Position numbers and translations under genes: made by a program. From Octopus vulgaris (taxonomy: Eukaryota), in NCBI GenBank assembly GCA_951406725.2, contig OX597833.1, positions 73,408,001 to 73,472,000 on the forward strand: a stretch of DNA of 64,000 nucleotides. Reading direction: 5' to 3'. Positions 39,881 to 64,000 of this stretch are shown here, piece after piece. The number at the start of each line of letters is the position of its first letter. Position 1 is the first letter of the stretch. Below the pieces are notes generated by a model. It saw only the letters and a list, made by a program, of their open reading frames with translations. It searched no databases and was not told the origin of the DNA.

Positions 39881-40357
39881 AATTAATCTCATTCTAATAT
39901 TGGGACGAGCACTTAACCTTCATCCTTCACGTTCATATTTGCATAAAGGAAATTCTTTTCTCAAACAAATTGTAAGTCATACTCGAGGCTCCGATTAAGC
40001 TACAAAGGGTTACTCAGGCACTGAATTCTAAGTCCCTTGCATTTTATAACGGAAACAGCTGTAAGCTAATGACGTTTAATTCCTTTGTCATCTCATCGTA
40101 TTACCGCTCTGTACTCGACAAACGCTTCTTTCTGGACCACATCTATACTGAGTTCTACACCAATTTATTAGTCTCTCTCTCTCTCTCTCTCTATATATAT
40201 ATATATATACATACATACATACATACATACATACATACATACATACATACATACATACATACAAGGAATGCAGAAAATGGAGATGGAGATAAAACTGATG
40301 AATAACAATTGATTTACATCAATTATCATTTATTAATTACAAAAAGACAGAATCTCA

Positions 40358-40712
40358 ACTTACAGCTGTTTCTGTAAGCGCGATTCCCAGGCTTAACCAC
40401 CACAATAACAATATTAATAATAATAATAATAATAATAATAATAATAATAATAATAATAATGATAATAATAATAATAATAATAATAATAATAATAATAATG
40501 ATGATGATGATGATGATGATGATGATGATGATGATGATGATGATGATGATGATGATGATGATGATGATGATGATGATGATGATGATGATGATGATGATGA
40601 TGATGATGATGATGATGATGATGATGATAATAATAATAATAGTAATAGTAATAATAGTTATCATTGTAAGTAATCAATTATACCAATTTGAATCGCGGAA
40701 TTTCATCAGAGC
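40358..40712 (-). ncRNA. hammerhead ribozyme motif with microsatellite-expanded stem II loop
   Basis: Minus strand: gct-CTGATGA-...cgcgattc...[about 245 nt ATT/ATC repeat]...gaatcgcg...-GAAAC-agct-GTA-agt. Confidence 0.6.
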
Positions 40713-41435
40713 GAAAAAGTAAAAAGAAAAAGGAGAAAGTGAGAAAACGGTGATAGTCAATTCATGCTACATGCTGATCCACTGCAAAACTTTCGATGGA
40801 TAGTTATAATATCTAGTGGTTCATTCCTATATACGGGGTGAAGGCGTGGGTTAAATACATAATAACTATATGAGCAATTTGGCTAGGTTAAAAAATAAAA
40901 TAAAAAGCAAGAGATATAATTAGAAATATCGGTAGTTATAGAACTAAATGATTTGACTATAATTTATTATTGATTGATTTCGTATGTATATTATTTATTA
41001 TTATAAGTAGGCAGTATACCTGAAAGAACTGACCAATGGTATCCTCTTACTACTGTCCAGACCAGTCCTACTCCTGACCCGGGGTTCTTTCAGGTATACT
41101 GCCTACTTATAATAATAAATAATATACATACGAAATCAATCAATAATAAATTATAGTCAAATCATTTAGTTCTATAACTACCGATATTTCTAATTATATC
41201 TCTTGCTTTTTATTTTATTTTTTAACCTAGCCAAATTGCTCATATAGTTATTATGTATTTAACCCACGCCTTCACCCCGTATATAGGAATGAACCACTAG
41301 ATATCATAACTATCCCAATTCTACCTCTAAATTCTAGTTGGTCAGTGGATCAGCATGGAGCAGCAACTGATTATCAATGTTTTCCCATTTTCTCATTTTT
41401 CTTTTTCTTTTTACTTTATTTTTATTTACTTTTCC

Positions 41436-41550
41436 GCTCTGGTGAAGTTTTGCGATTCAAATCGATAAAATTGATTACTTACAATGATAACTATTATTAT
41501 TATTGTGGTGGTTAAGCCTCGGAATCGCGCTAACAGAAACAGCTGTAAGT
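41436..41550 (+). ncRNA. hammerhead ribozyme motif, core-mutated (CTGGTGA)
   Basis: gct-CTGGTGA-...gcgattc...gaatcgc...-GAAAC-agct-GTA-agt. Confidence 0.55.
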
Positions 41551-41873
41551 TGAGATTCTGTCTTTTTGTAATTAATTAATAAATGATAATTGATGTAAAT
41601 CAGTCGTTATTCATCACCTTTATCTCCATTTTCTTCTTTTCTTGAATATTGCTAAACTTCTGTTTATTCTAGTCATTTCCTAACATTTATGAGCATTAAT
41701 ACCAATGCCTATGATTACATATTGGTAATAGACCAGTTGATTCATTGGATACATGTATCCCTTAGACGGTCGTTATAACCTCTAACTTAACTCATATATA
41801 TATATATATATATATATATATATATATATATATAACCTTGCTATGCTTACTTTTCTTATTCTTTTCTCTACAG

Positions 41874-41944
41874 TGTATTTAAAGTGGAAGAATTCCGGCA
41901 GGAAGTGCATAGCAGAATCTCCTCAATTGAAAAGCGACTTGAGA
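41874..41944 (+). CDS. PDE9A: PDE9A-like exon (VFKVEEFRQEVHSRISSIEKRLE)
   Basis: ctacag/gtaagt. Aligns to human [23 protein letters not shown]. Phase 2 to 1. Confidence 0.9.
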
Positions 41945-42199
41945 GTAAGTATATCTGTCAGTTTATTTTGCGTTTTAATGTGGTTGCGTTTGCAAAGATC
42001 TTTGTGCTCTAACTGGTGTATGTGATGGTCATAGTTGTGGTGGGGGGTGTCCTTTGTGTATAAGCAGACTGATCCGGTAGCTCTTATCATCGTAGACAAT
42101 CGAGCTATGATTTTGCATATCCACAGCTATAGTATAACCATAAATACATTATCCAAGATGTGACAGAAAAACCTAAGACTCACCATCCTTCAGAAATGT

Positions 42200-43030
42200 T
42201 TCAACAGTGAGCAAAGAGGCTCACTCCAATTCAAACATTATGAAGATTTCATTACCAATTGCTTAACTTCACTAGCGTGTAAAACACTTCTATTTAGTAA
42301 TAGGCTCAGCGTGGGTTAAAATGTCAGATACCGAAGAGTTGTTTGATGTATCGATTGGATCATGCGACATTGCAGATATCTGCGATCTTGTGGGTCCTTT
42401 TGTATTAAATACACTGAGATCCAATTTCCTATCCCACGTGGTTCATCAATACTGAGATTAAGTCTTGGGAATATCTTATGTCTTTGATTATCACTCTTGA
42501 TAAATTTAGGAAAATTTTTATTCCATTAAGCTCTCAAATCACCGTTACTACTAATCTGTCAAAAGTCGATTTTTTAATATGTTTCCCTAGATTTAAACAC
42601 CTGCTCTTATAAAACATATCAGACCGAGAAACTTTCATACATACATAAACAGTCCTGTCACCTCCTGTAGTTTTTAAAAATCTGATAGCTAACATTAGTA
42701 ATAGGATATTAAATCAATCTCTTCCTAAACAATTATTTGTTAAAATAGCCCCCTACTATAACAACGCCCTAGGTAACAGCGGCTTCAAGGATAAGATATT
42801 TCACTTTACTATTAACTCTTTAAGTAAAAATAAAAATTAATCTAAAAATAGACCTAAAAAGACAATTTGGTCTGCCCCTCCTTTCTCTTTAAATGTTAAG
42901 ATTAACGAAGGCAAGAACTTCCTGTTTTGGGGGGGTTTTTTGATAAATATTTCTCAATAAATCATAAATACAGGAAAATTTTTAACAGATGCTCAATTAA
43001 AATATCATACAGCTGCTGACCCAATATGGA
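42200..43030 (+). mobile_element. Penelope-like reverse transcriptase relic
   Basis: AWVKMSDTEELFDVSIGSCDIADICDLVG (FDVTMGSYDGAE motif), YIHKQSCHPP, APYYNNALGNSGF and KIFNRCSIKISYSC*PNM. Confidence 0.85.
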
Positions 43031-43059
43031 GAACCGACATTGTTAGCCATGATGGAGAT

Positions 43060-62214: not shown

Positions 62215-62447
62215 TTTTTTTTTTTTTTTTTGTACTTGTTCCAGTCATTTGACTGCGGCCATGCTGGAGCACCGCCTTTAGAGTGGTGAAAGAGTACAGC
62301 AGGGATCACCACCACCCCCTGCCGGAGCCTCGTGGAGCTTTTAGGTGTTTTCGCTCAATAAACACACACAACGCCCGGTCTGGGAATCGAAACCGCGATC
62401 CTCCGACCGCAAGTCCGCTGCCCTAACCACTGGGCCATTGCGCCTCC
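62215..62447 (-). mobile_element. chimeric SINE (family B head + family A tail) in the right arm only
   Basis: The head matches 35270-35432 and the tail gcggtgctccagcatggccgcagtcaaatgac matches family A. Absent from the left arm. Confidence 0.8.
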
Positions 62448-62623
62448 TTATATATATATATATATTTTTTTTTTAATTTATTCTTTTATCTAATTTACCA
62501 CTGACTCCTTGACCACTCCCCCAAGTATGATATTTTGAGCTATGCCTACCCCCAAAAAGTCCCCCACCACCACCCCTTTAAACCTGCCTAAATGTATAAA
62601 TGCCAATACAATTCTTGTTAACT

Positions 62624-62674
62624 AGCTTCCTGAAGATTTCTCTTGAATGAAACAGTTCTAGTCCTGTAGAAGCT
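62624..62674 (+). ncRNA. type I hammerhead ribozyme motif
   Basis: agcttc-CTGAAGA-t ttc tctt gaa t-GAA ACAG ttctagtc CTGT A-gaagct: 6-bp stem I, 4-bp stem III, GUA site. The base of stem II is a U-U mismatch. Confidence 0.7.
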
Positions 62675-62871
62675 CCTTCTATATAATAAATTAATTTTAC
62701 TCTGCTATGTATTGAGTACCTTATTTACTGTGGTTAACCCCGAATCAACCCGGGACCTACATATATATATATATATATATATATATATATATATATATAT
62801 ATATATATATATAACATTATTGGTGAATTGAAGAAATGGAGCTGAACGCAGATTGAACAGAAATCGTTTTA

Positions 62872-62960
62872 TTTCATTCTACACGTGTTTCGAAAGGCAC
62901 AAATTACCAAAATCCGATGGAATAATGGGACCATATTGTGTCTTTCTCTTCAGGAAGAAA
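62872..62960 (-). ncRNA. type I hammerhead ribozyme (antisense arm copy)
   Basis: Reverse complement of 63705-63793. Confidence 0.8.
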
Positions 62961-63704
62961 ATAGGAAATCCGTTGGAAAAACAAAAACAGAACAGAGGCG
63001 GAGCAAAAACAAATCGAACTATGCTCCTAAGAGCCCATGGCGAAACTGTTTATCAGTGTATGTTGAGAACCGGTGGCTGAAGAATTCAACGGGTCAGGCA
63101 TCGGTCAATCATGTGGGTGAGGGTGCGTAGATGTTCTTTGTGACCGAGAATAAAGTTCTGACTATTTAAGGAATATTGGATGTTTTATAAGGGGCGAGAA
63201 AAAATCTACTTAGAGACGTGTGTGTGTGTATACTGTTCTATATATGTGTGTGTTGGCGTAGGGGTAGAAAACATTTTTTGTGTACGTGTGTGCGTTTGAT
63301 CGTTCGGCTGTCAGTGGCTACTGCCGTGATAACCGTTGGGTGGCAGAAAAAAAAAAATATATATATCAAACGCACACACGTACACAAAAAATGTTTTCTA
63401 CCCCTACGCCAACACACACATATATAGAACAGTATACACACACACACGTCTCTAAGTAGATTTTTTCTCGCCCCTTATAAAACATCCAATATTCCTTAAA
63501 TAGTCAGAACTTTATTCTCGGTCACAAAGAACATCTACGCACCCTCACCCACATGATTGACCGATGCCTGACCCGTTGAATTCTTCAGCCACCGGTTCTC
63601 AACATACACTGATAAACAGTTTCGCCATGGGCTCTTAGGAGCATAGTTCGATTTGTTTTTGCTCCGCCTCTGTTCTGTTTTTGTTTTTCCAACGGATTTC
63701 CTAT

Positions 63705-63793
63705 TTTCTTCCTGAAGAGAAAGACACAATATGGTCCCATTATTCCATCGGATTTTGGTAATTTGTGCCTTTCGAAACACGTGTAGAATGAAA
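63705..63793 (+). ncRNA. type I hammerhead ribozyme (Penelope-type, palindromic stem III)
   Basis: ttc-CTGAAGA-gaaagacacaa...ttgtgcctttc-GAAAC-acgt-GTA-gaa: intact core, long stem II, acacgtgt palindrome, GUA site at 63783-63785. Confidence 0.82.
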
Positions 63794-64000
63794 TAAAACG
63801 ATTTCTGTTCAATCTGCGTTCAGCTCCATTTCTTCAATTCACCAATAATGTTCTAATTTCAATTATCCGCACCAACGCACGGTTGCAACACCATATGGTT
63901 GTACCTCCAACCGTGCTGTTTTACTGCTGTGATTTTTGCTACTAAGGTATCGGTTAAACTTTTGATTAATCTACTACAAGATTATTCATCTTTCTATTTC

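Follow-up and report, generated by a model that had tools for sequence, protein, structure and literature searches.

Three fold-back elements, here called elements 1, 2 and 3, lie between exons of the PDE9 gene of Octopus vulgaris, within a window of 64,000 nucleotides of genomic DNA (C20:73408001-73472000 of the genome G000, assembly GCA_951406725.2, contig OX597833.1). With a probability of about 0.88 they are 5'-truncated insertions, inverted head to head, of three protein-coding families of Penelope-like elements (PLEs), the enzymes of which likely cut (TA)n targets and copy one RNA from both of the cut ends. A first-pass annotation, made from the sequence of the window alone, had described three fold-backs sharing a layout with outward-facing hammerhead ribozymes; each was found at the place given for it, and the arms could be aligned. 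It had also traced them to Penelope elements integrated with inverted pseudo-long terminal repeats (pLTRs), which is borne out by parent frames for reverse transcriptase (RT) and GIY-YIG endonuclease (EN), by tandem units and by inverted copies. The further claim that the fold-backs are non-autonomous fails, as they are truncated copies of families with RT/endonuclease frames of their own, and their junctions differ by locus. The parts of the elements are the following:

40262-41035, minus strand: tail-less inverted arm of element 1, from the 3' untranslated region (UTR) of family 1, an old Hydra-type PLE
41036-41795, plus strand: tailed arm of element 1, with the tail at about 41645-41795, terminating in (TA)20
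57402-59337, minus strand: tail-less inverted arm of element 2 (family 2), with an antisense hammerhead copy at 57424-57462
59338-62755, plus strand: tailed arm of element 2, with the end of the open reading frame (ORF), a microsatellite-rich 3' UTR of about 3.3 kb and the tail at 62691-62755
62756-62812: (TA)n, at once the right flank of element 2 and the left flank of element 3
62813-63364, minus strand: tail-less inverted arm of element 3 (unit positions 2921-3474), with an antisense hammerhead at 62880-62953
63365-64000, plus strand: tailed arm of element 3 (unit positions 2987-3624), consisting of family 3 3' UTR/pLTR only

The arms of element 3 (62810-63300 against 63365-63855) are 100% identical over 491 nt, those of element 2 (57402-59337 against 60494-62690) are 97% identical, and those of element 1 (40283-41029 against 41084-41629) are 87-92% identical, the innermost 150 nt reaching 99%. 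Past the end of the short arm the tail continues for about 150 nt in elements 1 and 3 and for about 65 nt in element 2. Element 3 runs to 64002, just outside the window, where it terminates in (TA)n; its tail-less arm extends further 5' than the tailed arm and supplies the 64-nt spacer. In element 1 the segment 41036-41083 is further-5' sequence of family 1 and stays unpaired. All three elements had been called ORF-less, which is true of element 3, the whole of which lies downstream of the family 3 stop (unit position 2738), and is not wholly true of element 2, where 59341-59376 in the spacer are the final 11 codons and the stop of the family 2 ORF. Sensitive blastn found no meaningful similarity between the families, in line with the mutual dissimilarity noted before. 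A short interspersed repeat at about 62232-62447, occurring also at 35267-35432, is a later insertion into the right arm of element 2 only; it resembles a short interspersed nuclear element derived from tRNA.

Families 2 and 3 are two young families with intact frames. Family 3 is built of tandem 3624-nt units with a frame of 899 codons, and dozens of near-identical open frames occur among its 104 scored protein matches; when the genome (2.8 Gb, 227 contigs) was searched with the right arm of element 3, the 40 scored matches, the best of 1384 candidates, were 99-100% identical. Family 2 has 1270 candidates, the best 40 at 98-99% identity, and a frame of 722 codons (L123:7745-9910, in one of six regions fetched), which begins directly past the tail end and is 40% identical to the RT region of family 3. 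The open frames of both families carry YRDD and a C-terminal VY..C..Y(I/V)G domain, motifs recognised by eye against the Hydra alignment. Families 1 and 4, the latter present in the window as a solo copy, are accompanied by remnants of RT/GIY-YIG ORFs. Family 1 is older (531 candidates at 73-90% identity, one twin excepted), and decayed GIY-YIG sequence lies upstream of its end and collinear with it in two of 23 loci (L237 and L244); for family 4, with 2920 candidates, 10 of 14 other loci have ORF remnants upstream. The long 3' UTR of family 2 is largely microsatellite of (TA)/(TG) type (L123/L124; 59377-62755 in the window), and therefore this retroelement itself spreads microsatellite-like DNA.

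The layout was followed through the genome by a census of family 3, in which 45 records were placed on one natural unit: 37 loci comprising all 40 full-length DNA matches, and 8 others picked by hand from the 104 protein matches. Inverted copies make up 37 of the 45 records (29 of the 37 DNA-match loci and all 8 of the hand-picked ones), none faces inward, and 8 are solo, one of them (L161) having a tail stub shorter than the 45-nt cut-off. The fold-back is the default product of family 3 at the loci examined. One end of the inverted record falls at unit position 3620-3624 (tailed) and the other at 3463-3477 (tail-less; 20 at 3474) in 36 cases, the remaining record, L177, being an older broken copy with its far end at 3460, and in families 1 and 2 the short end is fixed likewise. 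At 25 of the inverted loci it is the tailed arm that extends further 5', at 12 the tail-less arm. Since almost every locus has an inversion junction of its own, each insertion produces its fold-back afresh. Of 267 recurrent polymorphic positions compared between arms of the same locus, 6 differ, six arm pairs without overlap contributing nothing to this comparison; between loci the figure is 3748 of 18444 (20%). Since the two arms share variants, they were likely copied from one template.

A course of events consistent with these features can be outlined. The GIY-YIG domain would nick both strands of the (TA)n target, priming would take place from one nicked 3' end at the tail end and from the other 65-150 nt further upstream, at a fixed site, and both primings would use one RNA, from its two start sites. 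Both cDNAs would halt early, and short matches or palindromes would serve to join them 5'-to-5'. Each inverted insertion of family 3 would, we infer, use each of the two start sites once. Because the hammerhead motif lies just upstream of both priming sites (in family 3, 67 nt upstream of the short end and 217 nt upstream of the tail end), any sufficiently long arm would have it near the outer end, and in the pre-mRNA the arms are predicted to pair and bury the motif as a by-product. This agrees with the in vitro description of PAc (PMC11167929), in which the PLE protein cuts and extends both strands, no difference between them having been seen, and two RT start sites bracket the tail.

Copying from two ends has to be weighed against the possibility that the second arm is yielded by a single cDNA that snaps back at a short palindrome to serve as its own template, or by antisense RNA that primes itself. 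Self-priming has already been proposed, in a section of PMC3846280, and the sharing of variants by the arms of one locus would be equally expected from snap-back DNA synthesis or from arm-to-arm gene conversion. Several junctions fall at palindromes, for example CCCATGGG and CACGTG, and the inner ends are 100 nt apart or less in 6 of 37 pairs, a slight surplus over the 2.5 expected (p 0.03); together the close inner ends and palindromic junctions favour some snap-back. As the source of the second arm in general it is nevertheless unlikely, if by no means negligible, for either arm may reach further 5', the inner-end positions of the two arms are uncorrelated overall (Spearman -0.006), and DNA snap-back fails to explain the fixed end of the second arm, which matches the second RT start site reported in vitro. 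It is considerably less probable that the fold-backs form a non-autonomous family, resembling retrozymes or miniature inverted-repeat transposable elements, that transposes as an intact hairpin. The whole of element 1, junction included, has an inverted twin about 50 kb upstream (G000:C20 about 73399840-73401710; L025:1830-3712, minus strand), 99.6% identical over 1132 nt, with unrelated flanks and an (AAT/GAT)n expansion longer than that of element 1; a finished fold-back has thus been copied as a unit at least once. To this may be added that no intact family 1 ORF was found in 16 ten-kb family 1 regions or 23 upstream loci. The last 22 nt or so of the twin, however, differ from element 1 and resemble other family 1 ends, which suggests that it arose by local gene conversion or repair copying. 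Apart from this one twin, many copies with the same internal junction were not seen, the junctions of family 3 vary from locus to locus, and many copies continue into the ORF. Neither were head-to-tail units of the short, ORF-less retrozyme type found; the hammerhead-bearing copies are inverted or are solo ends of coding elements.

The explanation least to be credited, with a likelihood next to nil, is that the fold-backs are artefacts of long reads or of assembly. The complete identity of the element 3 arms would agree with it, but in elements 1 and 2 the arms have drifted apart in sequence and have insertions on one side only, the fixed asymmetry of the ends is repeated at 36 loci, and a contig of run X15 spans the central junction of element 1 (41000-41113), though the twin is a possible source of that contig. 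Against copying from two ends there stand, besides the twin, the lack of a family 1 ORF in the regions searched, the ambiguity of the shared variants and the evidence for some snap-back, two further points: a Pfam search of the family 3 protein recognised no domain, and the 40 DNA matches, as the best-scoring (youngest) of 1384 candidates, bias the census to young, long-arm copies.

As regards classification, the families display the traits of EN-bearing PLEs, namely a single ORF with RT and GIY-YIG, tandem and partial pLTR copies, an inverted truncated copy, a one-ended tail, and a hammerhead motif in the pLTR, though this last scores below the Rfam cut-off. The Hydra clade of PLEs with a C-terminal EN is treated by Craig et al. 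2021 and includes Hydra-1_Obim from another octopus; the relevant sections of that paper (PMC8557442) already describe inverted 5'-truncated copies, a one-sided tail and (TA)n targeting. The change of DKG to DKT, a mark of the clade, is seen in LDKTKN (family 2) and SDKTRN (family 3), the place of RWK is taken by IRWL and IRWR, an equivocal match, CCHH is absent, CxxC and CxH stand round a conserved E (CNLC..E..CPH, CDLC..E..CMH), and insertion into (TA)n is evident from the flanks. The CxCX5C linker occurs in family 2 as CNCPDKTTC, and family 2 is provisionally filed under the Hydra clade, pending a tree. The linker is absent from family 3, where an S/N-rich stretch with one C is found instead, and S/N-rich inserts separate RT and EN in the protein encoded at L023:3289-5985 (minus strand); for this reason we class family 3 only as a Hydra-like PLE.

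The octopus families are like the Hydra clade also in the C-terminal position of GIY-YIG within the single ORF, in the hammerhead near the 3' end and in the tandem and inverted truncated copies. They are unlike it in size, as the clade has units below 3 kb and tails of 30-40 nt, whereas the octopus units are 3.6 kb and about 5.5 kb, with long microsatellite-rich 3' UTRs and tails of 65-150 nt, and family 3 departs further in its linker and inserts. Compared by eye with the printed sequence, the octopus proteins differ from Hydra-1_Obim. The inserts of family 3 recall the N-rich inserts reported for rotifer Penelopes in part of PMC3846280, which also gives head-to-head as the commonest arrangement of Penelope/Poseidon. 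With Penelope/Poseidon and PAc, so far as those accounts go, the octopus elements share head-to-head inverted repeats, a tail on a single arm, AT-rich targets and two RT start sites; what goes beyond Penelope/Poseidon is that the pairing of one tailed with one tail-less arm was counted here at many natural loci, and that the arms share variants. A literature search, with repeat databases outside its range, found no paper on Hydra-type PLEs in Octopus vulgaris, and for octopus, Penelope and hammerhead together Craig 2021 was the only relevant paper found.

The ribozyme motifs on the sense strand of PDE9 are as follows:

41439-41547, plus strand: family 1 hammerhead-like motif, sense copy, with a mutated core (CUGGUGA at 41439)
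54922-55404, plus strand: solo 5'-truncated end of a Hydra-type PLE of family 4, with about 33 last codons and the 3' UTR
62624-62674, plus strand: family 2 hammerhead, sense copy, predicted cut at 62668/62669
63702-63795, plus strand: family 3 type I hammerhead, sense copy, CUGAAGA, predicted cut at 63785/63786

It had been claimed that a hammerhead lies near the outer end of both arms in every element. This is correct for elements 2 and 3, on both arms of which a core-plus-helix scan found the motifs and reproduced the two cut positions given earlier (as predicted cuts), and it has to be amended for element 1 because of its mutated sense core. A strict scan gave five motifs for the window, where 200 local dinucleotide shuffles averaged 0.005 and had a maximum of 1. 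The Rfam model Hammerhead_1 scored 14.8 bits on element 3 (E 0.54; cut-off 34), a targeted Rfam search of element 2 returned no hammerhead match, and a search of the whole window returned none among the 150 listed of 208 matches, nearly all of which were microsatellite-driven microRNA. In the sense motif of family 1 helix III is palindromic (ACAGCUGU) and helix II has an extra unpaired base on each side; the antisense core of element 1, CUGAUGA, is intact, with loop II expanded (about 230 nt) by (AAT)n/(GAT)n microsatellite, and CUGAUGA is present in 10 of the 15 cores compared, the sense copy of element 1 left aside. The family 2 hammerhead has a helix I of 6 bp, a weak helix II with U-U closure and a helix III of 4 bp, and that of family 3 a long helix II with G10.1-C11.1 and a palindromic helix III, ACACGUGU. 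Like the minimal PLE hammerheads portrayed in parts of PMC4209133, they have type I topology, a short palindromic helix III suiting dimers and, in families 1, 3 and 4, a long helix II; unlike them, families 1 and 2 have no G10.1-C11.1 abutting GAAA, and helix III of family 2 is longer. Non-LTR (long terminal repeat) retrozymes likewise combine a type I hammerhead with PLE-derived non-coding repeated DNA, but they consist of short head-to-tail units without an ORF, whereas the octopus elements are inverted stubs of coding elements.

Traces of cleavage were sought by counting 5' junctions genome-wide in 7-nt windows, a count prompted by three short arms that start at the predicted cut. There were 38 junctions at the cut, 44 at 21 nt upstream, 31 about 170 nt upstream and 9 at 14 nt downstream, and no peak at the predicted cut as compared with the upstream control windows, in a count whose patterns are unequal in pass rate and in which two arms of one locus may both be included. 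At about 6 of 28 distinct loci from the cut-window count both arms end within a few nt of the cut, which is suggestive only.

A fourth hammerhead was missed by the first-pass annotation, which had every sense ribozyme preceded by an antisense copy. It lies at 55309-55385 in the family 4 copy, between the PDE9 exons at 54197 and 56673, on the sense strand and with an intact core, and it has no antisense partner within the window. The 3' end of this copy is replaced by an unrelated hairpin. The nested inverted repeat concerned (55392-55944, arms about 94% identical, inner hairpin 55578-55680) was considered as a part of family 4 and rejected, being unrelated to the hammerhead families.

The idea that the upstream antisense arm silences the sense ribozyme, and that insertions neutralised in this way are tolerated in introns, fared differently in its two halves. 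Pairing of the arms is predicted to abolish the ribozyme: when element 3 has both of its arms, the predicted probability of the hammerhead helices is 0.0, the self-folds are predicted at about -17 to -22 kcal/mol and the arm-to-arm duplex at -194 kcal/mol, and the outer arms of element 2 are predicted to co-fold over the motif. Such self-silencing is thermodynamically predicted, yet it looks unnecessary. Even without the antisense arm, lone motifs of families 2, 3 and 4 are predicted to misfold (helix I probability 0.0-0.004). In families 3 and 4 (63702-63730; 55297-55320) the folding prediction has the 5' strands of helices I and II pair with each other; this mispairing, hiding the CUGA core, may possibly be a built-in off state.

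The second half supposes that selection keeps shielded insertions, since a sense hammerhead left unpaired would cleave the pre-mRNA and arm-buried copies would be better tolerated. Elements 1, 2 and 3 are indeed all shielded, and retrozymes are described as mildly depleted from Xenopus introns in part of a preprint (bioRxiv 2026.07.22.740005). About 80% of young family 3 loci (29 of 37, counted irrespective of genic position) are, however, fold-backs already, and therefore three of three shielded is no more than expected. Moreover, the intact-core sense motif of family 4 is unshielded in a gene whose spliced contigs exist, the sense core of element 1 is mutated, PLE hammerheads are portrayed as poor cleavers in monomeric form (PMC4209133) or as protein-dependent (PMC11167929), and slow intronic hammerheads are reported, at second hand, to be compatible with splicing (PMC2995048). 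Nor does the order of the motifs speak for selection. As both 3' ends face outward, either strand reads the antisense motif first and the sense motif second; geometry alone, as had been conceded earlier and as the lack of inward-facing records confirms, fixes the order, which is therefore uninformative on selection. Support for self-neutralisation by selection is accordingly wanting, and we hold it to be improbable. The same doubt applies to the broader picture in which two-ended priming from one RNA seeds octopus introns with many long, nearly perfect hairpins that mute their own ribozyme, selection purges the unshielded sense copies, and the inversion would serve as a safety catch by which these retroelements can spread into genes, and as a source of double-stranded RNA for the editing machinery. 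Silencing of intronic hammerheads by antisense arms was not found in a literature search by title and start of abstract, which points, though weakly, to its being unpublished. If true, self-neutralisation would be a rule for the tolerance of self-cleaving RNAs in genes; nothing here requires it.

The host gene was identified through a protein labelled Octopus vulgaris PDE9, which is identical to the exon just beyond the window. With that protein, exons on the plus strand were mapped at about 24673, 26768, 29307, 35476, 41874, 44627, 52135, 54197 and 56673, and at 67518, past the window. They flank elements 1, 2 and 3, which thus belong to the PDE9 pre-mRNA as had been assumed, and the three elements and the family 4 copy are intronic. 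The first coding exon was not found in the window nor in the 20 kb preceding it. One exon may be singled out:

41874-41944, plus strand: PDE9 exon, intron-free in contigs of 1.67 kb from X9 and X12, two runs guessed to be of RNA

The (TA)n end of element 1 lies some 40-80 nt upstream of the acceptor of this exon, near the expected branch-point region (41794-41873). Further ancient PLE debris in the gene, at 42267-43028, 28052-28129 and 40052, consists of decayed ORF remnants of Hydra type and an old, isolated fragment of helix III. The inverted pairs 16821-17689 and 24963-26266 were considered as hammerhead elements and rejected, since on inspection they are ends of DNA transposons; both elements have terminal inverted repeats, and 24963-26266 is presumably a remnant of a mariner-like transposase gene, judged by eye. 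Elsewhere in the genome, at G000:C24 27.9-28.85 Mb, about 12 clustered PDEase_I matches, each spanning the domain wholly or for the most part, lie in intron-free open frames of about 900-1170 codons and form an intronless expansion of phosphodiesterases.

The literature already has inverted pLTRs, (TA)n targets, one-sided tails and hammerhead pairs on opposite strands, the last at distances of 100-700 bp in Cervera and De la Pena 2014 (PMC4209133). The elements are thus of a known kind, to which several octopus PLE families of Hydra type are added; the novelty is modest and lies in evidence from within a genome for two priming sites each used once per insertion. The young, high-copy family 3 is a natural test set for the origin of the inverted repeats and tails of PLEs.

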